IMG/VR virus record: IMGVR_UViG_3300044695_005296
Location: 1-58,493 of that record
Source of the DNA: a virus
Taxonomy: Duplodnaviria; Caudoviricetes
Strand: one strand, 5' to 3'
Length of the DNA: 58,493 bases
A model generated the notes under the pieces. The model saw nothing but the letters and a program-made list of their open reading frames with translations. It was not told where the DNA came from and made no database searches. Positions 25,370 through 46,917 of the stretch are shown in pieces. The position numbers and the translations under genes are program-made. Numbering within the stretch: position 1 is the stretch's first letter; each line of letters begins with the position of its first letter.

Positions 25370-28300
25370 CTTGGCCTCATGAAGCCTGCCGCACGGAGGG
25401 TGCGTACCTGTGCCGAACTTACCTTCTCGGCAAGTTTATCAATATCTGCGGCATCCGACACAACAGGGTTGTTAATGGTGACGGACGCATTGATTGTCGC
25501 GCCTCCGCCAGCCATTCGCAAGTCCCCTGGAGCCTGCAACGCTTGCAGGCCAGTATTTGGCAACATGTAGCCACTGCTGTCAGGGATCATAAGCTCTGGC
25601 CCACGCTCACCAACAAGGTACGGTGTGTACTGCTTGATTGGCCCACCGAAGGCTCGCGCAACTGGCTCCGTTGACTTTCCGCCAACCATCGTTGAGCCAG
25701 TGCCGCCCTTAACAGGATTCCAGTTTTTTGGCATGACCTTTGACCATTCCCTAAAACCAGTAAACCCTGGCAGCATTTCGGTATAGTTTTTAACCCACCT
25801 AGGTTCCATTCCCATAAGCGAGAACAGCTCTTCGCTTGACCTAAATTTGCCAATATTCTCTGGTCTCCACATAAATGGAGGAATAATCATTCTTTGGGCA
25901 GCGAGCATCTTGTCTTGTGCTTGCTCTTTTTCGGCAGCGGTTAAAAGCTCTGTGTCAAAAAACGCTCGGCCAAGATTAAACGGTATTCCATAATCTTGCT
26001 TATTTTGCTTAACCAGGTCTTCGTAAGAAGTTCCGCCTGGATCACCCTTACCAAAAATGCTTTCCCATCCCATTTGGCCAAGATAACCAATGAATGGCGC
26101 AACTTTTCCGACAACGTCGGCAATGCCACCAGGCAAATCCCAAAGCATGCCGCCCGTCTTGTTTCCAACGTGATACGCGCCCGTTGTTAGCGCAAGAGAA
26201 GCAAGCAGGGAACCACCCAGCGTTTCTGGGGCAACTGCTGCCAGTTTTACGGCCGTAATCGTTTCTGCCAACGCGCCAAATCCAACTCTAGCAATTGAAC
26301 GACCGAGAGGCTCTTTCAGCTTGTCAAGTTCTTCTTTAGTTGCTTCAGACAAAACAATTGGCGGACCAGGGTTGAAATCGCCAGAGGCAAGGCCCTCTGC
26401 AATTGTGTAATCCTTCAGGGTGTCATACTTTTTATTTGGATCAAAGCTATCAAAAATTCCCGTAATTGACTCAGTAAAATTAAGCGGGCCACTGCCCAAC
26501 TGTAGATTTTCGTTTAACGTGGCACGCGCTAGTTCAGATTCAAGAGTCCCGTTTCTTTCAAACTCTCTTTTCTTATTTACCCAATAAGCTTCACTCATTT
26601 CCTCAATTCGAATTTGCTCTAGGCGCTTTTCCCACCAATTTCCGTCTTTCTCTTGCGCCTCGTAAAGGTCTGTTGCCCACCCAAAAGAGCTAAGTCCAAT
26701 AGAACCCTTCTTCCAGAATGGGTACATTTTTCGTTCTGCTTTTCGCAGCAGGTTAGAGTGCTTAAAGAAATCTTCAAGTATGCCACGGCCTTTTCCGCCC
26801 ACGCCCTCTGGGTAGAATTTGGCGCCCCTGCTCTGCGGAGAAACGTTTGGATCTCCAACAGTTTTTACAATTCCGAGTTCGTTAGGTTGCAAATGCGGCA
26901 GCAACCTGCCTGGCTGCAGCAGCAAATCGGCAAAAGGAGTTCCCTTAATGAAAGGAAGCTTTGCAAGTTGGGCAAACCAGCCATACTTGTATTTCCAACC
27001 AGTTCCGCCCCTTACAACCGCACCAACTTCACCACCGTGATTTGGTCCTGGCTTTAGCTGCATTCTTACTGGTCCGCCAGCAGCTTGTGTTACCTCGTCG
27101 CCAAATTGTCCGCCTGGAACCTCGTCAAGAAGCCTGGTCTCTCCTCCTTCACCTGGCCCAAATGGCGCAAAGATTTGCGTTCTTGCACCAGGAATTGGAC
27201 GAGATTTTCCTGTTTTTGGATCAACCGTATACGGGAATTCAACGTTTGCCGCAATATCCCCAAGGCTGTCAAGCAGCATTGGGTAAAGCTTCCAGTTGAA
27301 AGGAATTGTGGCGGTATCTGGGTCAATTATCGGCGGCTCTGGTGGATCAATTACTGTTGTAACCTTTTCACAATAGTAGCCGCCCTCGCTCCAAACCTTA
27401 ATATACCCAGGTGGGCAATCCCACGTTGGCGGCTCTGGCGGAATTGGTGGCTCTGGGGTAATTGGATCGTCCATTGGGATAGGCCCACGGCCCCTACCAA
27501 CGTACCCGCCCGCTGCCCGACCCATGACTGGGCTCCAGCCCATTCGTCCGCCACCGCGAATCTTGCTTGCTACATAGCGAGCGTAATTCTTTGGATAGCG
27601 ACGCATCATTTCGTTCTTCTGCGCTTTTGTGTTATTTGGGTTAGCCATAAACTCGTTGAAAGAGTTTTGCTGGAAGCCCATAGGGTCGCCAACAAAGCCC
27701 AAGCTTCTCTGGAAGCTATCTGTTGGGCTCCAGAACGGATCGTCTTTCCCTACGGGTCCGACATATCCGCCGCCAGCTCGACCAGTTACACCAACCAGAC
27801 CGCCGTAGTATCGTCCCTGCTTGCCCGCCTTAAGCGCGCCAGAAGAGGACTGCATGCTACTTGGAAGCTGGTGGTTTGGCGTGACGTAGCCGCCACCATT
27901 TTGGAACATGGTGAGCATTTCTGGCCCACGCTCCCCAACAATGTATTGACCAGCGCCAACAGGTCCGCCGGCCGCCATTGGCTGCCAGTTCCATGCAGTG
28001 CCGCTCCATACCCAGTCACCGTTTGTTGCATACGGTGGCTTATATGTTGGCTTAGGCGGCTTTGTGACCGTTCCTGAGCCAGTAGATGGGGCAAAGCCTT
28101 CCCCGCCCGTTCTGGCAATCGTTGGAAGATCGCCAAACTTCTTATAAATCGCGTCAAATTGTGCGTACAAACCATCAAATATTTCGTTGAACTGTGAGCG
28201 CTGGATGAATTCATCATAGCCATCGAAAGGCATATTTTGTAGTTTTACCGCAAAATCTCCAAGGTTATCAATAACGCCCGCTGCTTCTTTCGCTGCTTGG

Positions 28301-31300
28301 GTGCCTTTGTTTTCTATCGCAAATCCTGTAAGTCCCGCTTGCGCCCTGGTGACCACACCCTTTAGGCGATCCCGCTCTGCCAGGACTTTCTTTTTGCTAA
28401 TCTTGTCAAGACCTTTTTCTACGCGCTCTTGCTGGGCAACTATTGCATCAACGTTTGCCTCTGCGGCAGCAGCTGCCATTGCGGCCCTAACGACATCTGC
28501 CATGGTGGTGGAAATAATGTCGCCAAGTTCCTGGAATCGCGTAGCAAATGCGGTGCCCATAATGTCTGCCAAGGCCTCGCCCTGGAATTGACCCGTTGCA
28601 AGAATAGATTCAATTGGCAGTCCGGCGTCGCCAAACATTGCGTAGAATTCTTCCTGGGCATCGGCCGCCTTGATCTTTCCTTCTTGAATATCCTTAAGGA
28701 GCTTCTGCGCTCGTTCCTGAAGCCTCCTAGCCCGCTCTTGCTGGTCCGCCCCAAGGGTTTGTTCTTTTTCTTGATAATATGTTGAGACCTGCTGATATTG
28801 AACGCTGTTTTTTGCTTGCTCAATTGACGTCTCCATAGACGACAGCTGATAATCCGCCTCTTCTTCTTGTAGCTTTTTGGCGGCCTCTCGTGCGGCAATA
28901 GCGGCCTCGATTGGATCCTTTTGTGCGTCAAACAGGCCAAGGGTTGCGCGCGCTGCGTTTTCCTGAGCGTCGTTTAATGCATTAAGCTTTTCCTGCTCAG
29001 CACGCTGCTCTTTCATTGCAGTGTACTGTTCTTCCAAAACACCAAGCCGCATAATTTCGCCGTTGTGCAACGCGTCAACGTTGTAGATGGCGTCTTCTTG
29101 CTCGGCCTTCAACTGCGCGGTTTCTTCCGCGAATGTTTTATTAAGAAGCTCCATTGCCCTTGAAAGGAATTGATCAAATGCAGTTGCAAATGGATCAAAG
29201 ATCTTGGCAAGCGCCTTGGAAAGCTTGTCTAGGTTCTTTTGCGCGTCGTCTAGGCTTTCATTGAGAAGCTTAAGCGAATCACTTGTGGAGAAGAGCGCCT
29301 CGTCTGGCGTGCCCTCTTTATTAAATTCTCCCGTGAACGCCATTCCCTTTCCGCCCAAGCCGAATTTACTAAAAATCATTTCGTCTATTTGCGCTTGGCC
29401 AAAGTTCTCTGCAAGATATGCAGCCGGGTCAATTATCGCTGCTGGGAGTGTCGAGGTTGGGAGGCGGTAACCGCCAGCGTAATACATACCCTTTTCGCCA
29501 GTGACCGCGCCACTTGACATCCCCGCCCCCGCCGCGAGCTCTGTAATGAGAGAAGTCCCGTCGTCCCTAGACATGATGCCCATAGATACCAAGGCATAAA
29601 GCTTGTCGGCCATTTCACTGCCGATTCTTGCTGCAGCATTAGTGTTTGTAGCCTGATTGAATGCGACCATTTGCGAATCAAACGGGCGCATTGCCTCTCT
29701 ACTCAGGGCGCCAGACTGATATGCCGCAACTTCTTTTTCTACAGTTGCCTTTAAGTAGCCTGCTGTTTTTCCAGCTTTTGTCGGGGTGTAAATTGAAACG
29801 CCGGTTTCCCCTTCAAGGTTGTTTGCGGTGTACATTCCAGAAGCAACCAGCTCGTCCATTTCGGACGCTGATTTCTTTATGGTTTCTATCTGATCGTCGA
29901 TTACCTGCTTAGTGCTATAAGAAGCCTGTCCGGTAAGCGGGTCTTTCTTAATTTCCTTAACTGCAAGCCCACTGTCCTTCCAGGTCTTGGCAACATCTTG
30001 CATCTGCTTGCGGTCATTAGCACGACTTTCTTCGTAAGACATAACGGCAGCTTTGTTAGCAGAATTTACTGCTTCATTTGCAAGTACAAGACCTCCCAAT
30101 AGTGTGCCGAGGCCCATCATGCCGCCGCCCTTGCCAAAGAAGCCGCCTACTTTTCCAAGAATCCCCGAAACTCCGCCCATTGGCGCTATAGCTAGAGCAA
30201 CCTGGGAAGCAGTCTGCAAAACTGCCGCAAAGCCAATAAGTCCTTGTGACGCTTGCGCAAGTCCATCAATCTGCATACCAAACGCAGACGTAATTGCCTG
30301 CACGGCCATTCCGAGGCCACCAAGGGTCATGGCAGCCTTGGATGCCATGCCGGTCATTTCGGCAAAGGCCTCGGTACCGCCACCCATTAGTTGAATGTCG
30401 TCAATCGTTGAAGCGGCCGCCACAACAGCAGCTTCTATTTTTTCTTTTGCGGTTACCGGAAGATTTCGGTCTCTTTCCGGTCGACGATTTATAATGTCTT
30501 GCAAAGCGCGAGCTTTATTAATCTCGTAGGCAAGCCCCGTTGGGGAACCAGCCAATCCCTGTAGCCCCTCGACGCCTTGGGCAGCTACCCGTTGCGCCGG
30601 AGTCATGTATTCTTCGTCAATTGGGAGAGGGTTTAATCCCTGCTCTTTCCTTGCGTTGTTCTCCCTATGTTGTTCAGCCCTTCGCTCATCGCGCATTTTT
30701 CTGTATTCGTCAATGTTTAAACCAGATTCAAGAGCCAAAAGCTTTTCATCAGATTCGTATTTATCTAAAAGAATTGACCTGCCGCTCTTTGTAATCTGAG
30801 GATCTGCAATAGAGCCAGAGAGAAGGCCTGCCTTCAGCAATTGAACTGTTTTTGCGTGAGTCCTTTGGGCCAAGGCGAGCTCTTCCGCCGAGGCCGCCTC
30901 GCCAAGGGCTCGATATCTGGTGACTGGCTTCTGAACGGCCATGCCATCTGGGCGAACCTCGCCAGTGATCTCATATCCGGTGTACGGGATTGGCGCTCCA
31001 GCGTATATCCCTGTTGCGTGTTCCTTAAAGTAGCTTGGCGCGGCCCCCTGGCCCGCAAAATCTCCAGGCTTAAAGCCCGTAGTTTGACTAATTCCAATCC
31101 CGCGAGGCTCCATCGCCGATACCGTTTTGGGCTCCATCATTGGCTCGCCTGTTTCCGGATTGGACAAAGGCATTCCAGTTGCTGGGTCTATAACGGGAAC
31201 CATTACTTCTTTTGTTGGCCCAAGAATGCCGTATCTAGAGGCTCCGGTTCGACCGTATGAGCTCATTTCCACAGCAGCAACCTGCATATTTTGCTGCAAG

Positions 31301-34300
31301 CCTGCAAGCAAACCCGATACGCCGTTAGTGAGAATGGCCATACCTTCGATTGCTGCCTTCTTTACAACAAACGCGCCCATCAAGGATCCGATAAGCGGAG
31401 CAAGTTTTTCCAGAACTCCGGCCATTGCACCAAGCCCTGCGGCTATGCTTGAAATTAGCGGAAGGGCTGCCTTTAGGGCAATTACCAATCCCCCGCCAAT
31501 AATCTGTGCCGCAGCCGCGCCAAGCGCTTTAATTGCAGGGATTAGTGCCTCGGCAATATCTGGCCCAATTTCCATAAGCGGCGCAGCCGCCTGATCAACA
31601 GTGTCTGCAAAGCCAAGGAAGTTTGTTTCGTATGCGTTACGCAGAGCGCCAAGAGCCGCAATTGCAAGAGTGATTGTTGCGACTAGCGGGTTTGTGCTTA
31701 CCGCAGTCATCAGTGCCTTGATTGCCAAGGAGGCAACGACCGCTGCTCGGACTAGGTTATTAGAGAGCAAGTCCCCGATAGTTGCAATGCCGCTGCGCAA
31801 GAAATCTATTGCACTTCCCGTTTCTGATCCGCCGAATACCTTGGCAAACAAGTTACCAAAATACAGCATTGAATTAGCAATTACCTTCATTGATGCAGGA
31901 ATTGCCTCTCTTAGCGTATTCGCAAATCCTTGCAGGCTTTGTCCAATCTTTACAAATATCCCGTATGTTCCCTTTTGCTGCAACAATTCTGAGAAGCGCA
32001 CAAGCAAGTCACGGATGGCGTTATAAAGAGGGCCAGTCATAACCGCAACAAGCGATTGCGACATATCCGAAATGGTGCTCATGGCACCGGTCATCGTCTT
32101 AGAGAGGCGCTCCATTCCGCCGCCGTACTTCTCGCCAAGCCCCTCAATAATTGCCCCTGAGGCAGCCTTTCCTGAAATTCTTCCTGCGGTTGTTAGCCGA
32201 CGGATTGCTTCAATAGGGTTTGCATACAGGTCATTAAGAATTCTTCTTTGCTCATTAGTCATCTTGTCGCCAGTTGCTTCAATTTCTTGAATCAAAGCCT
32301 CTGACAAGATTTCGTAACCAGCAATACCGGCGTTAGCTAGCTGCATCATGTCGTTTTGATACACGCGACCAGCTGATCGCATCTGGCCCAAGGCGTACGT
32401 AATGCGCATGATGCGCTCGTCGCCACCACCAAGAGCCGCAACGGCGTCACCGATGTCCTTGATATAGCCGACTAGTTGCCCGGATTCATCTCTTTGGATA
32501 ACGTCACCAATGTTGAATCCGAACGCTTGCATTCGGACAGCCGCTTCCTGCAGCTGCGTGAAGTAGAACGGCGTAATGTTGGCGAACTCTTTAAGTCGGT
32601 CGATCATGCCGGTAGCACGACCCTCAGCAACTCCCATAGAGTCGCCTGCGTTATAGAACAACGTCGAGAACCCAACCTTTGCGTCTTCAAGCGCCTGGTT
32701 GAACTGGATAAAGCCTGAAGAAAGGTGGCTAATAGATCGGTAAATAGCGTTTGCTGCGTTCTGCGTAAGAACGAATGCAACAGCCAGTTTTGCCGTATCC
32801 TTAAAGGTGCTGATTAATCCGCTGCCGCTGCTTGTTGCAGCGTCTAGCGCCTGGCTAAAGTCAAGCGATCCCTCAGATGCTCGCATAACGGCATCGTCAA
32901 AGTCTTGCATGATCCCGACCATTGGCCGAGTCGCCATAAAGGCATTTTTCATTCCAGAGGCCATGTCGCCAATTTTGCTAAGCCCAGGGAACGTATTCAT
33001 TCCTTGCATGACGTTGTCGAGATCTGAGAAGCCTTGCCCGCCAAATGCAAATGGCATGCTTGTTGCGCCAGCGTCCCCGCCAATCAGCTCCCTGTAATTG
33101 CTATCAAATATTGCCTTGCTGATAGATTCGGCAAGATCGGTTGATAGTGGGTCAAAGTATGGCTGCACTGCTGTTGATCCAGAAACAACTGGGCCAACAG
33201 GTCCGCCACGTCTCCCTCGCTTTGTTGCAGGAACCCTAGTTCCTGGCTGCGCGCCAAGGAGAGGATGGTCTGGTCTGTACTCTCGTACAAATGGGAGAAG
33301 CTCTGGGAACTGCTCTGCAAGTCCGGCAATTGCCGACGAGGCCAAGCTTGTTCTTGCCAGTTCTGTTCCGGCAAGCGGTCTGTCTGGAAGACCGGCCATC
33401 CTGCGTACTTGTCCCCTGTAAATCTGATTTTCTTTTCCGCCGCCAACAACTCCGGTGAGAAGAAGCTCAGAAATTGTAGAAAGAAGGTTTTGGCCCGCTG
33501 CGGAAACTGCAGCAACCCTGCCTGCTGGCTCTGGAACAAAACCAGGACCAGTGCTTGGTGGTGCCGCAGGTCCAGCCGGCTTCTTCTTTCCCCCCTTACG
33601 CTTAGCGCCACCTGCTGCCTCTACGAGTGTGGCAAGCTGCTCTGGATCATCTGCGTCGCTACCTACAATTCCGTGTGGAACCGTCGGACTTGCAGCAACG
33701 CCCAGCTTATCCGTAAGCATTGCCGTAAGCGCTGGTATGTTTTTTGCTCTGCCTAAAGTGTCAAGAACAACAGCGGCGTCAAGGATTCTTTCTGGCCTAA
33801 TTGACTCAAAGACCTTGCTTCGCTCGCTGGCTGGAGTTGCCTTAAGCGCACCTTCAAGTGCTCTGGCAAACATTGCGCCAAGGTCCTTAGGGTTGACGCC
33901 GCCCGCAGCGGCAGCGCCAGTAAGCTGGCCAGACATATTCCTTCTCAGTCGAGCAGCAAATTCAGCAACTGGCTTAAGCGCCGTTCCAAAATGTTGCGAA
34001 AGATCAAAGGCTCTAAGCAAACCGCCCTGATAGGGATTTGCGCCACCGGCAATTCCAGGAAGGATTGAGCCAATGTCCGTAATTCCGCCTGGGCTGCCGG
34101 CTTTTCTTGCTCCGGCATTCATCTGCCGAGTAGAAAGAGCCAAGCTGGCTTCTGTCTCTCCGGGTTGCAATATCTGCGTTGATTGCGCAAGCAGTTCTGC
34201 GTACTGGCTTAGGCCCGCACCACGGGATGCTTCCAGCATCCTTACCTGTGGGCCAAAGTGCCCAGGAACGTTGATATGCATACCTTGTGCATTTGGGTCA

Positions 34301-37300
34301 ATGTCAGCTGCCGTTTTTTGGTCAACATATGCTGGCTCATACCCAGCTTTTTCCTTAGGGCTTAGGGCCTTGTACTTAGAGGCCGCAATTGCCCCCTTTG
34401 GCAAATCAAAATAGCTAAAGCCTTCAAGATTGTTAGCATCTCCAAGTGGTATGGTCTTTCCGCCGACCTTGCTTCCTTTTGGAACAAACATGTCTTCGCC
34501 AGAAATTCCAGAGAATACTCGGTACTGCGAAGGCACCGGGACGCCAATCTTCTTATATACTTCCCGCTCAATGCGGGCGCGCTCTGCTGGATCGGTTACG
34601 CCTTTTACGCGATCCGCAGTTTCCAGTCTTGCATTGTCAACTTTTGCGTGAGTAAACTCGTGCGCAAGCGTAGTCAGCGCGCCGCCAAGCGTAACGTTGA
34701 CTGGATCTTGCCTCCTGCCGCCCAGGTCCATATCGACAGTTCCCGTGCCGCCCTTGCTTACTGGCGAGTAAGACGCCCAAGCTCCCTGGGTCGCAATAGG
34801 ATTTCCAAATTGAAGATCTATACCGCCAGGAACCCCTGGAGGTGCAAACTTTTGAGCAAAGTCTGCAAGGATATTTGCCAAACCACCAACTGCTTTTGGA
34901 TCATTGCCAAACTGAGTAAGGTGCGAAGCAAGAGTTGCCGATCCGGCAAGTCTTAGGCCAGGTGGGATTGGAGCCCCACCAAGTCGCGTAAGATTTGATG
35001 GTCCGTCTCCGTATTGAACGGTGCTTATTGAAGGAAGCCTTACCGCCCCTGGTCCGCTTGGCTTCTTCTTTTGCAACGCTGGGTTTGCGGCAATCTGCGC
35101 AATGTCTGGCGCATAGGTTGAAGGAACCTGACCAAGCATGCTAAACAGCACCTTGCGAAGAGGGATACCCTTCAGGTCGCCGCTCTTAAATGCTGCGGTG
35201 CCCGTGTCTTCGATATCCTTAAGGATGCCGCTGAACATGCCCATGATGGACTTGCGTGCCTTTGGTGCAATGCCGCGCAGGGCTTTCTGCATTGATCCGC
35301 CAGCAAACTCTCCCTGGCCCGTAGCGGCTTCAAGGATGGTCTTTTGGAACGACTCAATACTCTGCCTGAACAGGCTTGGGTTCATCTTTTGGCCAGCAAG
35401 AGATACCTTCAGGTTCTTGATGGCGGTAAGGGTTACCTGCTCAAAGGCGGTCTGCAGGGCTGTGTACGGGGTGCCAGTAGCAGCTCCACCGCTGCGCTTG
35501 CTGTATTCGGCAAAGGGGTTTGTCAGGCCGTTCATACTGCCACCCCCTGATCTTCGTGATAGTTCCCGACCGTCCGGCCGGGCTGCGCCCCGCGATTCAG
35601 CCATGCGACTCCTAAACGCTTCACGTGCGCGTCTGAAGATAGCATCGACTGTTGCGAGTGCTTCCTGCTCACTATATCCCCCTGCTCGCAATGCTTCAAG
35701 CAATTGCGGCTCTATAACTTTTCGCCGCGTCATGATGCCCGCAAGGGTAGCGGCTTCTTCCCTTGCGAGTTTTGTTTGAGTGTCCCGGAACTTTCCGGGG
35801 ATTCCAATTGGCACATCGCTGGCTGGGCGATATGGCTGTTGTCCAATCCTGCCGGTGCCCGGTGGGCTCAGGGTCAGGTCGTGATCAATGGCGGTCACGC
35901 GATAATTTCCAGGAGAGCCTACGCCGCCCTTCGGGTCGGCTAAATTGAGGAGGTAGTTAAGTCCGTGTCGGTCAAATGTCTGCCCAAGATGATCAAGGAT
36001 CTGCATGCGCCTTCCGCCCCTGCTTGCAAGCCACGGCTTATCGCGAAGGGCTGGATCATCTGAGCGCGGGCCTAGGGGCTGGGAGAAGCGACCGATAATC
36101 TCGTCGTCTTCCCATACATCAACCATCTTTGACGGAGGTGCGTTGCGCTTGTTGACAAAGTCAATTGCGGTTTCCCCTGGGGCCATTGGCTGAATTGCCA
36201 TTCTCCTGCCACCAATGCTGCGCTCCAGAATTGTTGGGGTGTCCACCCCGAGAAGCCCAGCAAGGATCTCCATTGCCTTGTTTGGGAATTTACCCTCCAT
36301 CGGCTGCGCAAGGACATTTCTTACTTCTCCAGTAAGAGTTTTCAAAGCAAGGATTTGTTTGCCAGCCCCGCCAGACCAGTGGCCGATGCCGTGCGAGCCC
36401 ATGCCGGTAATGTCTCCGCCCAGCAAGTCCTGCAGCGTCATCCCATAGGTTTGTCCACCAGTAATCTGCTGCATGATGTTTGGCCTGCCCCTACCAAAGA
36501 GACCGCCAAGCATTCCACCAATGCCGCCAGAGCGCTTGCTGTATTCAGCCCATTGGTTGTTTCTTGCCAAAATGCGCGCAACTCGATAGCCAAGTTTATT
36601 TTTTGCGTCTACATCGGGATGCCCGCCAAGGGCAGCGTCTGGCGCCCCCCATGCGCGACTGCTCCATTTTGCAAACATTTGAGCCATCCACTCGGTCCCA
36701 ACATGCATTTGCCCTCTAATAGAGCCATATCCGCCAATTTTCCAAAGCTCTTGCATTGCTTCATTAATATTTTTATATTGCTTTGGAAGGACGCTGGCAA
36801 GCGGACCCTGCTTCCCCATCAGCATCATTTCGCCAATTTTTCGCATTTGGAGTTGCTCAGTAACATCCTCTACCATAAATCCTGTTTTGTTACTTCCATA
36901 CATCGTTTTTTGTTTCTTACTGCCAGGATGGAAAAAGCCACTGTAAGCGCCGCCCTGCCTGTTGCTTTTGCCGTCTATTTCTCCAGGCAAATAAAAATCT
37001 TCTGGCTTTAATCTTCCGCCAGTAGTCTCTTCAACATTTGCAAGCGCGGCCATCTGCGCCATGCCCTTTTTGTAGTCATAATGGTAGCCCCTGGCGCCGC
37101 GACCCATGCCATCTCTTCTGTCTCCGTATACAAACTCATCATATGGCTGATACCCGTAAAAACTAATACCTTTTTGTTTCATTGCTTCTTGATATTTGTC
37201 AACAGCCATTACGTGACCGAGCTCATGGGCAAAGATGCCGTGTATGCTCTGCGCCCTGCCAGCAAGGCCATCCTTGCTCGCAAAACGAGGATTCTTTGAC

Positions 37301-40300
37301 TTGTAGTAATCAAAGTATGCATTCTTGTCGTGTGCCGAATCTGGCGTAAGCAAATAATCCATCAGGTTTATCGGTCCAGAACCGACTGATGCCGTGCCAG
37401 TAGCGCCCCCATGCAATTTTTCGTATGACATCCTGATTCCGGTACTTCTTGGACCAGCAAGCTCTTGCATTTGTTCTGGATACTTCTTGTGGAAGCTTTC
37501 TACAGCTGCAATAATTTCTTGCAGTCGCCCTCGGTGAGCATCAGCCGGAACATTGTCAATTCGCAAGCCGCTAGGTGTCACTACTTGGTAATACGGAATG
37601 CCTCGGTGTCCGCTTGGCCTTGGGATTGGCTGTCCTTTACGGGGTCCAGCTACATACGTTTCGTTCTGGGGGTAAAATCTTGTTCCGCGCGTAAATGAAC
37701 CAAGCAAATTTTCTTCGCTTAATCTAAAAGCGGTTTGCCCTAGGTAATTTGGGTCTCCCGGACCCATCCTTCTAACAAGTTTTTCTTGCATTGGGTACGA
37801 TGTCTTGCCAGACCTTCGCGCAAACTCCATTGGGCTGTAGGCAATGCCCTGCTCTGCAAGGCGGGCTTCTACTCTCTTGATCTCTGCACGGATTTTTCCG
37901 TACATGTCAACAACCTTGTCTCCACCCATATGCATAAAGCTGCTTCTAGCGCCTAGGTCGGTAAATTCAAACCCGAGCGCCTCGTACAGGCCCATACCTC
38001 TTTCACTGGCTTTTAAGCTCAGTCCACCAGGGCTGCCTGGTCGCATGTTGAGGCGGGGGAGATCTTCTGGGGACACACCGTATTTAGCCTCTAGGGCGCC
38101 GGGGTATCTTCTTCGAGCCTCCATAGTTGCCCGAGCGTGCCGACGCAACTCATACGCCATAAGGCTTGTGCCGACACCTGGCACCCCAAGGCCGGACAGG
38201 CCAGCAAGTTTGCCTTGCTCGCCAGTGCCTGGCATTCTATGGGTCATTGCGCCAACAACAAGATTTCTTAGGCCAGCAGCGTCTTCCATGCCTGGGACAT
38301 AAAACCTATTTGGCGCGGTAGCAATAAACCCGCCCGTAAGCCCAATGCGGCGATTGCCGCTTTGGCCGGCCCTCCTATCTCTTCGCGCACCAGGCGTACC
38401 CGCGCTCACCTCTCTAAACGCATCAAAACCACTCATTTCGTCAAGGGCAGAACCAACCATATCCGCACGCGCCCTTCGATCAGTGTCCGTTGCATCCATC
38501 AAAGCTGAGCTTGTGAGCACTGAGCCCGGAGCCAATGTGGCAATTGATCCCATTCCTGATCGCTGGCGTCTAAACAGTTGGTACGCCCGAGCTGCAGCCA
38601 TTTGATCTGCTCGTGAAGTAATTCTTCTAACGTTTCCATCGTTCTGAACTGAAACGCCCATAGCCTGAAGCTGAGCATTAATCAACCGCTCAGGGTCTGG
38701 GGCAATTTCCCGAACCCGCATACCGGCGTTGTGGGATGCCACAAGAGCTTCCGCAAAAATCTGCTCGGGGCTTCTGCCAGCAAGGTTTTGAGGAATTATA
38801 GGCCTAGATCCCCTGCTTGCTCGACCAGGAATGAACTCTTTTCCTGTAACCAAAGACGTCCTAGTTTCATCTTCAAAAGTCACTGGTCGAGCTTTTTGGT
38901 CCCTCTGTTTTCTTTGCAGCATTTCGCCAAGCAGCCGAATCGGTCTTGGGAGCTCAGCAAAATCCCCACTAGGAAGATCTTGTGGAAGCATGACCCCGCG
39001 TCCAGTTGCCCTGGTTCTTGCAGCAAGTTTTCTCTGGGCCCCAGAACGGCGCGACATTTGCAGCATTTGATAATACTGTCCGGCATCGGTCGATCCCGAA
39101 GATGCCTCTGCCTCTCTTGTAATTGCAGCAGCCTCTAGCCGTGTTCGAAGGGTCTCCATGTACTTTTTAGTGTCTCTATATGAATATCCAGCAGACAAGA
39201 AAGATTCTTCAACAATCTTCATTGACCTCTTGCCGCCAAGAATTCCCCTTAGAGTTTTTGCTTCTCGCGCAGATGCGTCTTGTTCTTGCTTGTTTAATTT
39301 TACTCTTGAAAGTGTTCCGCCACCTTTATTCCACGGCAGCAGTGCGCTCAATGACTGAGGAATCTCTCGCGGCTTATAGCGCGCAGAGAATGAGGAGAAT
39401 TGCGGCGTATTGTTTAACTGCCTATCAAGGTCTGAGATGGGCCTATCAAGGCCGCGCATGCTAAATAAATGCTCATTATCAATGCCGACGATTCTTTTTC
39501 TTCCGCTTCGACCCTTGCCGACCATGATGTTGCTGCCGTGTCGATCTGACTGGCCAAGGATCTGATCAAGGAGCATGATGCGTCGCATGTCTCTTGTTGA
39601 GCCAAGGTGCCTAGTTGCTTGCGTTTCAATTTCATTGTTAAATACAGGATTTCCAGGAAGCGACTTGCCCATTGTTTCAAAATTTTCAAGCCAAGGAATC
39701 ATCCATGCATTGCGGCTAAGTGGCCGGTGTTGACGAACTTCTGTGTGTTGGAATTTCCCAGAAGCGATTCTGCGGGTTGCGCCAATGTTTGTTCTAGCCG
39801 AAGAGCCAACTTGCGGTAGTCTTCCGCCAGTTGCCAGTTGCTGCTCTAATGGAGTTAGCCTTCTCCTAACGACAGCGGGCGTTGGAGCCCCAAGCATCCC
39901 GCCAAGAACCTCATATACTTTTTCTGCCATTGGGCTATATGGAGAAAGTTTCTTTCTTCTAGTTTTTCTGTCCCCCTGCCCAAGGTTTCTCCCGACCTCT
40001 CGGCCATCTCGTTGTCCTTTGAGCCCCCTGTCGTTCTCGGGGATCATGGCGATAGCTGTGCCTCGCACTCGATCTCGCCCCGTGCCCATGGAAACGGTGG
40101 TGGATAGTCTTTTTGTGTTTAGGCGTTGGGCGCCAATCTCTTGGCCGAACGACATGTCGCCTCTGCGGATTGCCTCCAGGATTCGACGATCTGGCACAAA
40201 TCCAAAGGCTGTCTCGGCAACGGAGCGGGAGCCAGAGCGTCGTGACATTTCGCGCGGTCCGCCCTTGCCCTCCTTGCCGCCGTAGCCACGACCGTCAACA

Positions 40301-41646
40301 ACTGCACCCTTTTTGCGCAACGTAGAAATAAAGTTTTGTAGCGCTCGGCGGTCTGATGCAGAAGATGGATAAAACACTGGGGCGCCAGATGGGGAAACAA
40401 GTTTTTTATGATTTTTCCCTTTTTCAATTCTCCAGCCTTGCCCGAGAACCTGACCAACTATTCGGTCAATATCCTTGTTGCCGCCACTACCGCCCCTGCC
40501 GGATTTCTTGGAAAACTCCATGAGGCCGCGACCCGGAACGTGGACCGACATTGGCTTTCCCGGTGAAGTTCTTGGGAAGAACGTGCTGCTGCGACGTCTG
40601 GCTCTTCTTGCTGTCTCAATCATTCTTTGCAAATAAGCAGGCATGCGTCGCACGTCTTCTCTCATGCGACCTTGTGGGGCTCGAAGAGCTGATTGAAGAA
40701 GGCTTAGATTTTCTTGCTCTATTGCCGCCTCAAAAAGAGCAAGATCTCCTTGCTGCACATCGTAGCGACCCGAGCGCCTCTTTGGCTTTGGCGGACCAAA
40801 GCGATTGCCACGCCAGGCAAAATTTCTAAGGTCTAACGGCTCAGATGGATATGAGACGTCGCCAGTTTCTGATGCAACAAGCCTTGAAATGAAACGACCA
40901 AGATCACGCGAAGAAAGACGGGAAAGAAGCTGTGATCTTGCCTCTCTTCTAATAAAGTCTGGGTCTGTGTCGTAAGATGGGCCGGTGTCGCCCGTGCGGC
41001 CCTCAATGGCAATGCCTGCCTTGCGCATACCAGAGCGCTTAGACAGCTCCAGGCCAAGCGCGGCCCTTGATATGCCCGCTATGCTGGGTATAGAGCGGGC
41101 AGCCGCCCCGGAATCGTCTAGTGAGGAGCGGGCGCCGCGCGTTCCTGCGGCTCCCGTACCTGCCCCACCTCGACCGAAGGAACCGCTACCAGAGCGACCA
41201 GCATTTCTAAATGCCATCGCTCCGGTGCGGTTTTGCGACATGGCAGCACGCGCCATCGCGTCTGCGGTTCGCATTGCCTGGCGCTCTTGTGCCGCCAAGG
41301 CATTGGTAACTCGCTGGATGCCAGAAACGGCGTTATTGGGCTGTGCCCCAATATTAAATACTCGGCTTAGGCTTGCAGCAGAGGCGTTTGCCTGCGTCTG
41401 CAGCTTTCTAAGTGCGGGTATCGCGTCCGCGTCAACAGCGTTTCTGAATTGCTTAAGGGAGAGAGAGGCTTGGCGCAAACCTCGGAAAGACGAGCCGACC
41501 TTGCTTCCCGCTACCTCAAACTGATTAAGACCCTGTGTAAGCAGTCGGATATCTGCAAGGATGGCCTGTGTTCCAGCCTTGAATTGGCTGGTATCAAGAC
41601 CAATGGATATCTGTCCAGTACTGGACTGATCTGCCGAATCTGCCAC
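25366..41646 (-). CDS. Giant tape measure protein with multiple enzymatic cargo domains
   Basis: Follows the chaperone pair; FANITPF...GDAVAALGG...ALGQM..AGRV...MMQLANAGI tape-measure domain at about 32000-32750; VGERGPE C-terminal motifs. Confidence 0.9.
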   Translation of the reverse strand: MADSADQSSTGQISIGLDTSQFKAGTQAILADIRLLTQGLNQFEVAGSKVGSSFRGLRQASLSLKQFRNAVDADAIPALRKLQTQANASAASLSRVFNIGAQPNNAVSGIQRVTNALAAQERQAMRTADAMARAAMSQNRTGAMAFRNAGRSGSGSFGRGGAGTGAAGTRGARSSLDDSGAAARSIPSIAGISRAALGLELSKRSGMRKAGIAIEGRTGDTGPSYDTDPDFIRREARSQLLSRLSSRDLGRFISRLVASETGDVSYPSEPLDLRNFAWRGNRFGPPKPKRRSGRYDVQQGDLALFEAAIEQENLSLLQSALRAPQGRMREDVRRMPAYLQRMIETARRARRRSSTFFPRTSPGKPMSVHVPGRGLMEFSKKSGRGGSGGNKDIDRIVGQVLGQGWRIEKGKNHKKLVSPSGAPVFYPSSASDRRALQNFISTLRKKGAVVDGRGYGGKEGKGGPREMSRRSGSRSVAETAFGFVPDRRILEAIRRGDMSFGQEIGAQRLNTKRLSTTVSMGTGRDRVRGTAIAMIPENDRGLKGQRDGREVGRNLGQGDRKTRRKKLSPYSPMAEKVYEVLGGMLGAPTPAVVRRRLTPLEQQLATGGRLPQVGSSARTNIGATRRIASGKFQHTEVRQHRPLSRNAWMIPWLENFETMGKSLPGNPVFNNEIETQATRHLGSTRDMRRIMLLDQILGQSDRHGSNIMVGKGRSGRKRIVGIDNEHLFSMRGLDRPISDLDRQLNNTPQFSSFSARYKPREIPQSLSALLPWNKGGGTLSRVKLNKQEQDASAREAKTLRGILGGKRSMKIVEESFLSAGYSYRDTKKYMETLRTRLEAAAITREAEASSGSTDAGQYYQMLQMSRRSGAQRKLAARTRATGRGVMLPQDLPSGDFAELPRPIRLLGEMLQRKQRDQKARPVTFEDETRTSLVTGKEFIPGRASRGSRPIIPQNLAGRSPEQIFAEALVASHNAGMRVREIAPDPERLINAQLQAMGVSVQNDGNVRRITSRADQMAAARAYQLFRRQRSGMGSIATLAPGSVLTSSALMDATDTDRRARADMVGSALDEMSGFDAFREVSAGTPGARRDRRAGQSGNRRIGLTGGFIATAPNRFYVPGMEDAAGLRNLVVGAMTHRMPGTGEQGKLAGLSGLGVPGVGTSLMAYELRRHARATMEARRRYPGALEAKYGVSPEDLPRLNMRPGSPGGLSLKASERGMGLYEALGFEFTDLGARSSFMHMGGDKVVDMYGKIRAEIKRVEARLAEQGIAYSPMEFARRSGKTSYPMQEKLVRRMGPGDPNYLGQTAFRLSEENLLGSFTRGTRFYPQNETYVAGPRKGQPIPRPSGHRGIPYYQVVTPSGLRIDNVPADAHRGRLQEIIAAVESFHKKYPEQMQELAGPRSTGIRMSYEKLHGGATGTASVGSGPINLMDYLLTPDSAHDKNAYFDYYKSKNPRFASKDGLAGRAQSIHGIFAHELGHVMAVDKYQEAMKQKGISFYGYQPYDEFVYGDRRDGMGRGARGYHYDYKKGMAQMAALANVEETTGGRLKPEDFYLPGEIDGKSNRQGGAYSGFFHPGSKKQKTMYGSNKTGFMVEDVTEQLQMRKIGEMMLMGKQGPLASVLPKQYKNINEAMQELWKIGGYGSIRGQMHVGTEWMAQMFAKWSSRAWGAPDAALGGHPDVDAKNKLGYRVARILARNNQWAEYSKRSGGIGGMLGGLFGRGRPNIMQQITGGQTYGMTLQDLLGGDITGMGSHGIGHWSGGAGKQILALKTLTGEVRNVLAQPMEGKFPNKAMEILAGLLGVDTPTILERSIGGRRMAIQPMAPGETAIDFVNKRNAPPSKMVDVWEDDEIIGRFSQPLGPRSDDPALRDKPWLASRGGRRMQILDHLGQTFDRHGLNYLLNLADPKGGVGSPGNYRVTAIDHDLTLSPPGTGRIGQQPYRPASDVPIGIPGKFRDTQTKLAREEAATLAGIMTRRKVIEPQLLEALRAGGYSEQEALATVDAIFRRAREAFRSRMAESRGAARPDGRELSRRSGGGSMNGLTNPFAEYSKRSGGAATGTPYTALQTAFEQVTLTAIKNLKVSLAGQKMNPSLFRQSIESFQKTILEAATGQGEFAGGSMQKALRGIAPKARKSIMGMFSGILKDIEDTGTAAFKSGDLKGIPLRKVLFSMLGQVPSTYAPDIAQIAANPALQKKKPSGPGAVRLPSISTVQYGDGPSNLTRLGGAPIPPGLRLAGSATLASHLTQFGNDPKAVGGLANILADFAQKFAPPGVPGGIDLQFGNPIATQGAWASYSPVSKGGTGTVDMDLGGRRQDPVNVTLGGALTTLAHEFTHAKVDNARLETADRVKGVTDPAERARIEREVYKKIGVPVPSQYRVFSGISGEDMFVPKGSKVGGKTIPLGDANNLEGFSYFDLPKGAIAASKYKALSPKEKAGYEPAYVDQKTAADIDPNAQGMHINVPGHFGPQVRMLEASRGAGLSQYAELLAQSTQILQPGETEASLALSTRQMNAGARKAGSPGGITDIGSILPGIAGGANPYQGGLLRAFDLSQHFGTALKPVAEFAARLRRNMSGQLTGAAAAGGVNPKDLGAMFARALEGALKATPASERSKVFESIRPERILDAAVVLDTLGRAKNIPALTAMLTDKLGVAASPTVPHGIVGSDADDPEQLATLVEAAGGAKRKGGKKKPAGPAAPPSTGPGFVPEPAGRVAAVSAAGQNLLSTISELLLTGVVGGGKENQIYRGQVRRMAGLPDRPLAGTELARTSLASSAIAGLAEQFPELLPFVREYRPDHPLLGAQPGTRVPATKRGRRGGPVGPVVSGSTAVQPYFDPLSTDLAESISKAIFDSNYRELIGGDAGATSMPFAFGGQGFSDLDNVMQGMNTFPGLSKIGDMASGMKNAFMATRPMVGIMQDFDDAVMRASEGSLDFSQALDAATSSGSGLISTFKDTAKLAVAFVLTQNAANAIYRSISHLSSGFIQFNQALEDAKVGFSTLFYNAGDSMGVAEGRATGMIDRLKEFANITPFYFTQLQEAAVRMQAFGFNIGDVIQRDESGQLVGYIKDIGDAVAALGGGDERIMRITYALGQMRSAGRVYQNDMMQLANAGIAGYEILSEALIQEIEATGDKMTNEQRRILNDLYANPIEAIRRLTTAGRISGKAASGAIIEGLGEKYGGGMERLSKTMTGAMSTISDMSQSLVAVMTGPLYNAIRDLLVRFSELLQQKGTYGIFVKIGQSLQGFANTLREAIPASMKVIANSMLYFGNLFAKVFGGSETGSAIDFLRSGIATIGDLLSNNLVRAAVVASLAIKALMTAVSTNPLVATITLAIAALGALRNAYETNFLGFADTVDQAAAPLMEIGPDIAEALIPAIKALGAAAAQIIGGGLVIALKAALPLISSIAAGLGAMAGVLEKLAPLIGSLMGAFVVKKAAIEGMAILTNGVSGLLAGLQQNMQVAAVEMSSYGRTGASRYGILGPTKEVMVPVIDPATGMPLSNPETGEPMMEPKTVSAMEPRGIGISQTTGFKPGDFAGQGAAPSYFKEHATGIYAGAPIPYTGYEITGEVRPDGMAVQKPVTRYRALGEAASAEELALAQRTHAKTVQLLKAGLLSGSIADPQITKSGRSILLDKYESDEKLLALESGLNIDEYRKMRDERRAEQHRENNARKEQGLNPLPIDEEYMTPAQRVAAQGVEGLQGLAGSPTGLAYEINKARALQDIINRRPERDRNLPVTAKEKIEAAVVAAASTIDDIQLMGGGTEAFAEMTGMASKAAMTLGGLGMAVQAITSAFGMQIDGLAQASQGLIGFAAVLQTASQVALAIAPMGGVSGILGKVGGFFGKGGGMMGLGTLLGGLVLANEAVNSANKAAVMSYEESRANDRKQMQDVAKTWKDSGLAVKEIKKDPLTGQASYSTKQVIDDQIETIKKSASEMDELVASGMYTANNLEGETGVSIYTPTKAGKTAGYLKATVEKEVAAYQSGALSREAMRPFDSQMVAFNQATNTNAAARIGSEMADKLYALVSMGIMSRDDGTSLITELAAGAGMSSGAVTGEKGMYYAGGYRLPTSTLPAAIIDPAAYLAENFGQAQIDEMIFSKFGLGGKGMAFTGEFNKEGTPDEALFSTSDSLKLLNESLDDAQKNLDKLSKALAKIFDPFATAFDQFLSRAMELLNKTFAEETAQLKAEQEDAIYNVDALHNGEIMRLGVLEEQYTAMKEQRAEQEKLNALNDAQENAARATLGLFDAQKDPIEAAIAAREAAKKLQEEEADYQLSSMETSIEQAKNSVQYQQVSTYYQEKEQTLGADQQERARRLQERAQKLLKDIQEGKIKAADAQEEFYAMFGDAGLPIESILATGQFQGEALADIMGTAFATRFQELGDIISTTMADVVRAAMAAAAAEANVDAIVAQQERVEKGLDKISKKKVLAERDRLKGVVTRAQAGLTGFAIENKGTQAAKEAAGVIDNLGDFAVKLQNMPFDGYDEFIQRSQFNEIFDGLYAQFDAIYKKFGDLPTIARTGGEGFAPSTGSGTVTKPPKPTYKPPYATNGDWVWSGTAWNWQPMAAGGPVGAGQYIVGERGPEMLTMFQNGGGYVTPNHQLPSSMQSSSGALKAGKQGRYYGGLVGVTGRAGGGYVGPVGKDDPFWSPTDSFQRSLGFVGDPMGFQQNSFNEFMANPNNTKAQKNEMMRRYPKNYARYVASKIRGGGRMGWSPVMGRAAGGYVGRGRGPIPMDDPITPEPPIPPEPPTWDCPPGYIKVWSEGGYYCEKVTTVIDPPEPPIIDPDTATIPFNWKLYPMLLDSLGDIAANVEFPYTVDPKTGKSRPIPGARTQIFAPFGPGEGGETRLLDEVPGGQFGDEVTQAAGGPVRMQLKPGPNHGGEVGAVVRGGTGWKYKYGWFAQLAKLPFIKGTPFADLLLQPGRLLPHLQPNELGIVKTVGDPNVSPQSRGAKFYPEGVGGKGRGILEDFFKHSNLLRKAERKMYPFWKKGSIGLSSFGWATDLYEAQEKDGNWWEKRLEQIRIEEMSEAYWVNKKREFERNGTLESELARATLNENLQLGSGPLNFTESITGIFDSFDPNKKYDTLKDYTIAEGLASGDFNPGPPIVLSEATKEELDKLKEPLGRSIARVGFGALAETITAVKLAAVAPETLGGSLLASLALTTGAYHVGNKTGGMLWDLPGGIADVVGKVAPFIGYLGQMGWESIFGKGDPGGTSYEDLVKQNKQDYGIPFNLGRAFFDTELLTAAEKEQAQDKMLAAQRMIIPPFMWRPENIGKFRSSEELFSLMGMEPRWVKNYTEMLPGFTGFREWSKVMPKNWNPVKGGTGSTMVGGKSTEPVARAFGGPIKQYTPYLVGERGPELMIPDSSGYMLPNTGLQALQAPGDLRMAGGGATINASVTINNPVVSDAADIDKLAEKVSSAQVRTLRAAGFMRPS

Positions 41647-41665: not shown

Positions 41666-41947
41666 CTAGGACGAGCCGAATCCCGGCTTACCGAATGTTG
41701 CCACTAACTGCTCAATGGAGTCAATGCTTGCTGTTCCTGCGCCCTTTTTATTTCCTTGGCTCTTGGAACGCTTCTTCATATCATCATCGCGCTTCTCAGC
41801 GTACTGAGAAAAGGCATTGAGCTGGGCAAGAGTTAAGTTGAAAAAATCACTGGGGGTAAAGCCAAAGCTGTCCGCGTAGGAAGCCATGATGCTCCCCCAG
41901 TCGATTTCGCTCCAACCTAAGCCTTTGCCGCCTCCTCGCTTTTTCCC
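41666..41947 (-). CDS. Tail assembly chaperone, -1 frameshift extension (gpGT-like)
   Basis: The -1 frame is open from the slippery site (KRGGGKGLGWSEIDWGSIMASY...FGFTPSDFFNLT) to the stop at 41666. Confidence 0.85.
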   Translation of the reverse strand, partial: GKKRGGGKGLGWSEIDWGSIMASYADSFGFTPSDFFNLTLAQLNAFSQYAEKRDDDMKKRSKSQGNKKGAGTASIDSIEQLVATFGKPGFGSS

Positions 41948-42216
41948 GCAGCGCCCTCAACCTCACCGCCAAGAAGACCGCTTGCGCGCATGACCTTATC
42001 GATCTCTTCTCGCATGGTGTCAAGGCTAAAGCGGTCGCCCACTTCGCGCTCGGTAAGCTGCGGCTCGTCCTTCTTCAGAACTAGCCAAAGGATATAGCGA
42101 ATAACGGTAAACTTGGTCAGGTCGATCTGATCAAGCGATCCGTATTTCTCCTCGATATCGGCGAGGTCGTTAAGGGTTAGAACCTTTGTGGGTCTAACCT
42201 GGGACAGGTTTGCCAT
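41917..42216 (-). CDS. Tail assembly chaperone (gpG-like)
   Basis: Between the major tail gene and the TMP; AGGAG RBS. Confidence 0.85.
   Translation of the reverse strand: MANLSQVRPTKVLTLNDLADIEEKYGSLDQIDLTKFTVIRYILWLVLKKDEPQLTEREVGDRFSLDTMREEIDKVMRASGLLGGEVEGAAGKSEEAAKA
41941..41947 (-). other. Programmed -1 ribosomal frameshift site G GGA AAA
   Basis: X XXY YYZ heptamer in the correct phase near the end of the chaperone ORF. Confidence 0.85.
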
Positions 42217-43719: not shown

Positions 43720-45003
43720 GTGGAAAAAGGTCATGACCGATTAGTGCTCTCATGGACCCCCCAAGAGAAGGCGGATGCCGTGAGCATGGAGTGGGAAGAT
43801 TTCCACGCAAAGTATCCAACCCGAACACCCAACGCCTATCGCATTAAGCGCAACACCCTCCTAAACGGGAAGGCTTCGTTTATTGACAGGCGGGTTCACA
43901 ACGGCTCAGTGCGCAACGTGTTCCCCGGAACGCTTGCCGCTAAAGTTGCAAGCGAGGGTCGAATTGACCGCAACGCTGTTGCCAAGGTTGTAGAAGATGA
44001 GCTGTCATCAGAAGCGGTGCGAAGCGAGATTGAGCAGTTGAAGCAGGCCCATCGCGCGGCCCTTCGCAAGTTGTCCCAAAAGGACGACGACCGAGCGGAG
44101 CTGGTTCGCGCTGTTTACCAGGCCGCAAGCGACGCTGCTGCTGCCATTACGCTCCCTACTGTTAAGGCTCCAGCCAAGGACAAGCGTAAGGGCGCACCAG
44201 AGACCGCCATTTTGCTTCTCTCCGATTGGCAGCTTGGCAAGATTACCCCAACCTACAACAGCGACATTTGCGCAGAGCGGATTGAGCTGCTTGCGGCAAA
44301 GGTAGAGTCACTTGTTGCGATTCAGCGAGCAGACCACCCAGTAACGGATTTGCGGGTGTATCTGCTTGGCGATCTGGTTGAGGGAGAAGACATCTTCCCT
44401 GGCCAGGCGCACTTGATTGACGCATCCCTCTACAACCAGACTTTCCGTGGCGCGGAAATCCTTGCTGGGCTTGTTCGCCGATTGGCGGCAACCTTTGAGA
44501 ACATTCGCGTTGTTGGCGCAATTGGCAACCATGGGCGACTTGGCCGAAAGGGCACGTTCCACCCAGAGTCCAATGCCGACGCAATGATGTACAAGGTTGC
44601 CTCTATGTTGGTTAAGGACATCAAGCACGTTGATTGGGTAGAGACCATCTCCAAGGGCGAGCGGGCTTGGTTCGGCACCGACGAGGTGTACGGCAAGCGC
44701 TGGTTCCTATTCCATGGCGACCAGGTTGGTGGCGGCTTTGCTGGCTTCCCCTGGTACGGATTCGGGAAGAAGATCCAGGGCTGGAATATGACCGTTGCCC
44801 CGTTTGACTACAGCGTAGCTGGGCACTTCCACACACCAGTGCGGATGTACCTTAACGGCATCGTTCACTGGAACGGCGGCTCAACAGAGAGCAGCAACAC
44901 CTACGCCCAGGAGCAACTTGCTTCGGCTGGTGAGCCTTGCCAGTGGCTGTTGTTCCAGCACCCAGACGGCGTATCTGCGGAGTACCTGATTCGCCTTACC
45001 TAG
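43720..45003 (+). CDS. Calcineurin-like metallophosphoesterase with N-terminal coiled coil
   Basis: SDWQLG, LGDLVEG, GNHGR, FHGD, GHFH; GGAGG RBS; TATACT at 43676. Confidence 0.9.
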   Translation: MEKGHDRLVLSWTPQEKADAVSMEWEDFHAKYPTRTPNAYRIKRNTLLNGKASFIDRRVHNGSVRNVFPGTLAAKVASEGRIDRNAVAKVVEDELSSEAVRSEIEQLKQAHRAALRKLSQKDDDRAELVRAVYQAASDAAAAITLPTVKAPAKDKRKGAPETAILLLSDWQLGKITPTYNSDICAERIELLAAKVESLVAIQRADHPVTDLRVYLLGDLVEGEDIFPGQAHLIDASLYNQTFRGAEILAGLVRRLAATFENIRVVGAIGNHGRLGRKGTFHPESNADAMMYKVASMLVKDIKHVDWVETISKGERAWFGTDEVYGKRWFLFHGDQVGGGFAGFPWYGFGKKIQGWNMTVAPFDYSVAGHFHTPVRMYLNGIVHWNGGSTESSNTYAQEQLASAGEPCQWLLFQHPDGVSAEYLIRLT

Positions 45004-46870: not shown

Positions 46871-46917
46871 ATTCGTATTCTCCAAAATTTATCGGTTTGA
46901 CGCCATAGGGAGGCTAT

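Follow-up and report, generated by a model that had tools for sequence, protein, structure and literature searches.

The linear, 58,493-bp record IMGVR_UViG_3300044695_005296 of the IMG/VR virus collection (Duplodnaviria; Caudoviricetes; CheckV completeness of about 64%), analysed here over its full length as the window, comes from an uncultured phage and encodes a giant tape measure protein (TMP) with two kinase-like modules, D1 and D2, in its N-terminal part. The cores of both modules are almost certainly true homologues of the phosphatidylinositol 3-/4-kinase (PI3/PI4-kinase) and HipA_2 group, as the profile comparisons indicate, with the profile match confined to the catalytic core. In the layout of the protein a cargo region (residues 1-2053) stands N-terminally and is followed by the TMP proper, and the cargo region is divided by eight copies of a short dibasic motif. 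It appears moderately probable that the TMP N-terminus represents a cargo string with two active, virion-carried phosphotransferase modules. To our knowledge, the enzymatic domains recognised inside TMPs so far are cell-wall hydrolases, and no description of a kinase domain within a tape measure protein was found in the literature search.

The Pfam family PI3_PI4_kinase matched D1 with 28.1 bits (E 2.3e-6; cut-off 27.1) in the scan of a 2700-amino-acid (aa) piece, while D1 scanned alone scored 25.2 bits, below the same cut-off. A profile of D1 and D2 compared with 1.84 billion protein representatives retrieved 10 proteins at E ≤1e-3, one of which (P0002) is a close relative, and eight others hold from one to six kinase-like stretches each: six in P0003, four in each of P0005, P0007 and P0011, three in P0008, two in each of P0006 and P0010, and one in P0009. 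P0004, a spurious repeat protein by its E of 0.27 with a 12-sequence hidden Markov model (HMM) and its Pfam match TYW2_N_2, was excluded. Seven of the eight family proteins stand above the Pfam PI3_PI4_kinase cut-off (E 6.8e-54 to 1.8e-6) and P0009 below it, HipA_2 (PF20613) is also matched by three (P0011, P0005 and P0008), and an additional search brought in P0012 and P0013. An external HMM, composed of 27 kinase-like domains taken from nine proteins and containing neither D1 nor D2, was then run over the whole 5426-aa TMP and produced exactly two matches, at residues 659-733 (48.4 bits) and 1813-2005 (34.1 bits); its scores for D1 and D2 were 54.4 and 41.1 bits, respectively, and no shuffled D1/D2 sequence out of 2000 exceeded 4.6 bits. 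The alignment to the external kinase-domain profile by hhalign gave 97.5% for D1 and 96.5% for D2.

The two modules also resemble each other beyond chance, as the first-pass annotation of this DNA had proposed from the letters alone: BLASTP aligned D1 with D2 over 287 columns (35.4 bits, E 1e-6, 24% identity), and hhalign of the D1 family with the D2 family gave E 4.8e-5 at a probability of 68%. The alignment spans the helix AEKVYEVLGGMLGAPTP in one module and NKAMEILAGLLGVDTP in the other, then DRHGxN, ID[NH] and the C-terminal AREA..TL.GI...AGYS helices. The ranges given in that annotation correspond to residues 473-862 and 1708-2027, and all the strings that it quoted were found, with LGAPTP at residue 585 of D1 and LGVDTP at residue 1799 of D2; the AREA.TL.GI...AGYS helix, which it described as common to both, is invariant in the pairwise alignment at E323, A324, T326, L327, G329 and I330 and at A347, G348, Y349 and S350. 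The DRH-x-x-N loop and the ID motif, reported there as intact, are retained as DRHxxN and ID[NH] in both domains of all six phages, that is, the window and five related IMG/VR contigs (L002-L006), with D1 being 80-85% identical between the relatives and the window. The DRHGSN loop of D1 is identical in 6/6 phages; that of D2 reads DRHNSN in L004 and L005, with IDHD retained in all six. Over 17 family sequences the invariant columns, in D1 numbering, are one Gly, D222, D229-R-H231, N234 and I250-D251, which constitute the catalytic loop and the metal-binding aspartate. The ratio of nonsynonymous to synonymous substitution rates (dN/dS) in pairwise comparisons is 0.12-0.22 for D1 and 0.21-0.29 for D2; both are under purifying selection.

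The notion that DRHxxN and ID strings occur by chance in unrelated sequence, with no kinase homology behind them, draws on the failure of D2 to match Pfam directly at E ≤10 and on the empty results of the single-sequence PDB searches and the fold searches: phmmer of D1 and D2 against PDB sequences returned weak irrelevant rows only. Nothing was obtained from the single-sequence search with D1 in an index of 5.8 billion clusters (proteins of 215-686 and 687-2000 aa), from tblastn with D1 against 50,697 GenBank phage records, or from NCBIfam with D1, D2 and three neighbouring pieces, and a GTDB genome scan with D1 confirmed 0 of 43 pattern matches, so that no prophage or host was located. The external-HMM test is partly circular, as its 27 domains had been found via the D1+D2 profile; their Pfam labels are independent of it. 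However, such a coincidence is hardly credible and is already contradicted by the external HMM, whose 48 and 34 bits compare with 4.6 for shuffled sequences and fall in only two places of 5426 residues, by the hhalign values, and by the match of type II PI 4-kinases in PDB at E 3e-6.

As to the position of the family, the 17-sequence family profile placed PI4K type II beta/alpha (4wtv, 9hhm, 4pla, 4hnd; E 3.3e-6 to 6.6e-5) best among the PDB structures, followed by Tel1 (3e-4), PI4KA (5e-4), mTOR/DNA-PKcs (0.006-0.009), a Fam20-like protein (0.019) and the HipA-family toxins (0.085). Among the protein-language-model neighbours, PI3_PI4_kinase clusters made up 6/30 for D1 and 6/30 for D2, and HipA_2 clusters accounted for two neighbours of D1. 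Judged by this order of structures and these neighbours, the family of D1 and D2 is PI3/PI4-kinase-like, with the type II PI 4-kinases nearest and HipA more distant. The earlier label of PI3/4-kinase/HipA-like domains is thus borne out for the core, which is homologous to the PI3/PI4-kinase/HipA_2 group, but its HipA part is far weaker (E 0.085), and no CtkA entry is present among the PDB matches of the family profile; neither D1 nor D2 has a HipA-type Pfam match at E ≤10. PI4K2A and PI4K2B (PF00454) share with D1 and D2 the LD-x-I-x-x-N/Q-x-DR-x-x-N helix and loop, then a strand hairpin and I-D-N/H; however, the match spans no more than about 45-60 residues, no counterpart is seen for the N-lobe, for the elements that bind lipid or for the palmitoylation insert, and D1 and D2 reside in a phage tail protein. 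HipA and HipA_2 fall into the same Pfam group at clan level, whereas D1 and D2 are embedded in the TMP instead of being free-standing and are without an antitoxin partner, no adjacent antitoxin gene having been found.

The cargo region has an architecture of its own. The motif [EQ][FLMY][SA][KR][KR]SG is found at eight sites in the TMP, all within the first 2053 residues, in comparison with a mean of 0.004 and a maximum of 1 in 2000 shuffles, and no other real open reading frame (ORF) of the window carries it. The domain ends of the first-pass annotation coincide with copies of this linker, and all eight sites are retained in 5/5 relatives, with a single Ser-to-Asn change (EYNRRSG at linker 6 of L003). 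The codons vary between the sites, which points to a constraint on the peptide; an origin of the motif as a DNA repeat was rejected on the same ground. The modules delimited by the linkers (Table 1) include one, module 6, with a zincin-like HELGH site that makes it a candidate processing or muralytic peptidase. This module is 26-50% identical in L003 and L004, its flanks being 70-98% identical, and the identity returns to 92% at the linker at residue 1703; with its abrupt return at a linker, this is a cassette-like exchange of one module.

The same kinase-like family is borne by other virion proteins. MuF-type head-morphogenesis domains form the N-terminus of P0006 and P0008 (phrog_28751, E 5e-31; phrog_4728, phrog_2468, phrog_115), P0008 additionally contains an ADP-ribosyltransferase (ART) exoenzyme domain, and a NUDIX domain is present in P0010. 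A different phage contig, L008, encodes in its head module a 645-aa protein related to P0012/P0013, after a portal-MuF fusion, a prohead protease and two ORFs without assignment. At L008:98-8747, where this portal-MuF fusion gene lies, the C-terminal part of the prohead protease matches PHROG families named 'RNA ligase'. From the fusion of D1 and D2 to the TMP and from the MuF-borne members, delivery of the two modules with the virion may be supposed with about even confidence.

In the mechanism that we propose, the N-terminal 2050 residues would be cargo modules separated by eight E-[FLMY]-[SA]-[KR]-[KR]-S-G linkers; of these modules, D1 and D2 retain the phosphotransfer core with the catalytic D701/D1892, the Mg-ligand N706/N1897 and the Mg-binding D723/D1921. 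Most probably they are ATP-dependent phosphotransferases synthesised late as parts of the TMP; either the tail would carry them as packaged components, or a protease of the phage or the host would release them at the dibasic linkers. Their entry into the cell would occur together with the TMP, immediately before that of the DNA, and they would then phosphorylate a target of the host, be it a protein, a lipid or a small molecule, in favour of takeover or counter-defence. Activity of at least one of the two modules is put by us at even or slightly better.

Several results weigh against this reading, beginning with the missing direct Pfam match of D2 and the partial circularity mentioned above. 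AlphaFold2, supplied with alignments of 16 and 17 rows, yielded low-confidence models (mean pLDDT 36.6 for D1 and 43.7 for D2), and Foldseek found no match to them in PDB at E ≤1e-3; VIA-align returned only generic helical hairpins, matched to D2 residues 243-322 in the D2 tail. The PI4KII-alpha structure 4hnd, which appeared for D1 in the fold search at rank 18 with E 1.6, was not accepted as evidence, and neither was the kinase-compatible order of the predicted secondary structure at this model confidence. The kinase-domain claim of the first-pass annotation is supported by profiles for the catalytic core, AlphaFold2 and Foldseek lent the bilobal fold no support, and a kinase fold with ATP binding is what we infer. 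The N-lobe is likewise invisible to profiles: hhalign of the N-terminal halves alone stayed below a probability of 1%, at which level its best local matches coincide with the places where alphaC and the hinge would be expected, and hmmalign leaves the halves unaligned. By eye, where the beta3 ATP-lysine of D1 would be expected, the window has Ile and the relatives have Phe (AIAM[IF]PEND), and K566, the one lysine candidate that is conserved, lies in a charged, non-strand-like context ten residues before E575; in D2 the canonical alphaC Glu position is Asn (N1789), with E1793 one turn later. By the same inspection, compared with the family consensus, D1 retains the alphaC glutamate as E575, and K1769 of D2 is a plausible beta3 lysine, standing in the strand-like hydrophobic ILALK and retained in 6/6 phages.

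It is on these N-lobe features, together with an insert of 35-45 residues between the first hairpin and alphaC in both domains and the failure of AlphaFold2 to fold either, that a pseudokinase explanation builds: one or both modules would keep a kinase-like core without phosphotransfer and serve as binding, scaffold or assembly modules or as nucleotide-binding decoys. Pseudokinases, however, usually lose at least one of the catalytic Asp, the Asn and the Mg-binding Asp, whereas these three are what stays invariant between D1 and D2 at 24% identity and over the 17 sequences, and the catalytic residues are retained in 6/6 phages at dN/dS 0.12-0.29; we therefore regard this explanation as rather improbable, though the most serious of the rivals by our estimate.

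The processing and the delivery of the modules face objections of their own, which belong with the foregoing. Neither HELGH nor HEFTH, the second HExxH site, has a significant family match in Pfam or NCBIfam. The linker motif, its looser forms included, is absent from the capsid, portal and adaptor proteins, the scaffold also lacks the motif, and no protease could be tied to it; the prohead protease as the cutter is unsupported, only unrelated VSKK strings being present in the protease-scaffold protein and in the 2645-aa protein. The linker, dibasic residues followed by Ser-Gly, resembles a protease site and might reflect polyprotein processing or a recognition code, and its cleavage is a tentative proposal that falls somewhat short of even. 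A folded domain of 35-45 kDa should also not fit the tail tube. This last point speaks at the same time for another explanation, according to which D1 and D2 would be late intracellular enzymes, cut as part of a polyprotein from the TMP in the producing cell and engaged there, for example, in envelope modification, superinfection exclusion or assembly regulation, the fusion serving co-expression only. The eight linkers would permit such removal before assembly, and a similar non-injected role is favoured by Benler et al. 2021, in the available text of PMC8008677, for the HipA-family kinase of the 'Gratiaviridae' gut phages, the gene of which likewise lies among late structural genes, between portal and capsid. 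This explanation is nevertheless improbable in our view, since the family is also fused to MuF-type head proteins with ART and NUDIX domains, a platform treated as packaged and injected in the consulted parts of PMC5512222, and residues 1-200, ahead of the cargo, are the best conserved (90-100%), which accords more with an N-terminus that is assembled than with one that is discarded. The cargo-string reading can also be extended to a bolder form, which is unlikely but of interest: the TMP would be an injected polyprotein, divided at the eight linkers, through an embedded zincin or a dibasic-specific protease of the host, into about seven effectors, including two active PI4K/HipA-like kinases that would act before phage gene expression. 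If it were true, a tail-borne, cassette-exchangeable route of effector delivery would exist in parallel to the head-borne MuF route.

Concerning the origin of the two modules, D1 and D2 are evidently old, strongly diverged copies of a kinase core, and a specific relationship between them is likely from their alignment: in BLASTP with D1, D2 is not the top-scoring outside match, yet it is the sole one aligned over about 287 columns, the others covering 20-170. A quick maximum-likelihood tree, computed on 37 rows (L005 omitted because its sequence equals that of L004), does not place D1 and D2 as sisters; both have long branches (2.6 and 2.4), with 69% support at the deep forks that connect them. 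In favour of the internal duplication assumed in the first-pass annotation there is only the long collinear alignment; the tree neither supports nor rejects it. The copies within P0003, P0005, P0011 and P0010 cluster per protein, as do 4/5 copies of P0007, so that tandem amplification of the kinase domain appears recurrent, one long-branch P0007 copy excepted. With lengths of 1687-3184 aa, P0003, P0005, P0007 and P0011 are giant proteins, each holding 4-6 PI3_PI4_kinase/HipA_2-like domains in tandem; P0005 also bears DUF4347. A larger duplicated unit of kinase plus zincin was rejected (module 6 against residues 2054-2700, E 0.28).

Phage kinase-like domains, TMP enzymatic domains and polyvalent virion proteins are already known separately; what is new is the presence of two PI4K/HipA-like cores inside a TMP, the motif-delimited, cassette-exchanging N-terminal polyprotein, and a family shared with MuF proteins. 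The nearest known concept is that of Iyer et al. 2017, who described injected multidomain 'polyvalent' proteins, zincin-peptidase processing and MuF-fused effectors (PMC5512222, in the parts available). By the definition given there, the TMP is polyvalent, two kinase-like and at least five further modules being fused to it, and the resemblance extends to several effector-type domains on one virion-associated polypeptide, HExxH sites of putative zincin type, cassette exchange, and the ART and NUDIX domains found on sister proteins of the D1/D2 family. However, the carrier here is a TMP, whereas 'tape measure' occurs 0 times in the main text of that paper; the kinase clade in its available portion is a truncated Ser/Thr/Tyr-kinase group and not PI3/PI4K-like, and no counterpart of the eightfold dibasic linker is mentioned in that portion. 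Recently, Nagakubo et al. 2026 reported the TMP-related contractile-injection effector Sle1 with exchangeable functional domains (PMC13277306, as far as the accessible text goes), in which, like here, an exchangeable functional domain rides on a TMP scaffold, the domain being ejected with the tail contents; Sle1 has one C-terminal functional domain, while about seven N-terminal modules, two of them kinase-like, are present here. The gp0.7 kinase of T7, which according to the accessible sections of PMC5512222 and PMC8008677 phosphorylates host transcription and translation proteins in takeover, differs in being expressed early, in not being part of a virion protein and in belonging to another kinase family. 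Characterised protein kinases of phages are few in number, and T7-like and 933W examples are the only ones named in the available text of PMC8008677.

A kinase-like family nearly invisible to sequence search (10 matches in 1.84 billion) recurs on virion proteins, the TMP here and MuF proteins elsewhere. Provided that D1 and D2 have activity and reach the cell, their action would fall in the first moment of infection, which makes them candidates for enzymes of counter-defence or takeover, and tape measure proteins would gain a role beyond those known; the eightfold linker motif, for its part, offers a testable processing code for giant phage polyproteins.

Table 1. Features of the giant tape measure protein and of the surrounding structural genes (positions are those of the window)
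Feature	TMP residues	Position	Strand	Remarks
Giant tape measure protein ORF	1-5426	25366..41646	-	5426 aa, GTG start, uninterrupted
Modules cut by the linkers	1-199; 207-376; 384-465; D1; 870-1273; 1281-1700; D2; 11-residue spacer; remainder			384-465 matches small family phrog_2089; 1281-1700 has HELGH, weak M48; remainder has HEFTH, then TMP core
Linker 1	200-206	41029..41049	-	ELSKRSG
Linker 2	377-383	40498..40518	-	EFSKKSG
Linker 3	466-472	40231..40251	-	EMSRRSG; N-terminal edge of D1
D1 kinase-like module	473-864	39055..40230	-	Pfam PI3_PI4_kinase, external HMM, hhalign
D1 catalytic loop	D701-R-H-G-S-N706	39529..39546	-	DRHGSN
D1 metal-binding loop	I722-D723-N-E	39472..39483	-	DFG equivalent; GIDNE at residues 721-725
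Linker 4	863-869	39040..39060	-	QMSRRSG; C-terminal edge of D1
Linker 5	1274-1280	37807..37827	-	EFARRSG
Module 6	1281-1700	36547-37806	-
HELGH site	1474-1478	37213..37227	-	Module 6; zincin-like HExxH; Peptidase_M48 weak, E 0.027, 14.7 bits, cut-off 20.3
Linker 6	1701-1707	36526..36546	-	EYSKRSG; N-terminal edge of D2
D2 kinase-like module	1708-2029	35560..36525	-	External HMM, hhalign
D2 catalytic loop	D1892-R-H-G-L-N1897	35956..35973	-	DRHGLN
D2 metal-binding loop	I1920-D1921-H-D	35878..35889	-	AIDHD at residues 1919-1923
Linker 7	2028-2034	35545..35565	-	ELSRRSG; C-terminal edge of D2
Linker 8	2047-2053	35488..35508	-	EYSKRSG
HEFTH site	2329-2333	34648..34662	-	Second HExxH, downstream of D2; HEITH in relatives
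TMP_3-type tape measure core	3006-3201	32044..32631	-	Pfam TMP_3 40.6 bits, cut-off 41 (just below)
Tail protein gene		41917..42216	-	99 aa; upstream of TMP, at tail assembly chaperone position; phrog_2115 'tail protein', E 1.1e-9
Head-tail adaptor		45935-46885	-
Major capsid protein		47235-48461	-	SU10_MCP
Prohead protease with scaffold-like tail fusion		48468-50120	-	Peptidase_S78
Portal gene		50858-52987	+
2645-aa protein		17432-25369	-	Directly after TMP, start overlaps TMP stop; without Pfam match
1137-aa protein		14116-17529	-	C-terminal Peptidase_S74 intramolecular fibre-chaperone domain

Profile matches and gene position identify the product of the giant ORF as a tape measure protein, as the first-pass annotation had assumed for the protein that hosts the kinase-like domains: besides TMP_3, it matches the PHROG tape measure families phrog_1533 (E 1e-15), phrog_12798 and phrog_9959, and it lies between the upstream tail gene and the downstream tail and fibre genes (Table 1). 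The ORF is open and collinear in 5/5 related contigs. The two large products encoded downstream, of 2645 and 1137 aa, are probably distal tail and fibre proteins. Residues 1-200 of the TMP (41047-41646, minus strand), upstream of every cargo module, show the strongest conservation within the protein, with identities of 90-100% to three relatives when compared in 50-aa bins, and may dock to chaperone or terminator proteins. The prohead protease of the window is also fused to an Hva1_TUDOR domain, and its long acidic Ala/Glu/Pro-rich tail is probably the scaffold. A possible gene, an ORF of 427 aa without a Pfam match (43720-45003, plus strand), lies inside the otherwise minus-strand structural module.

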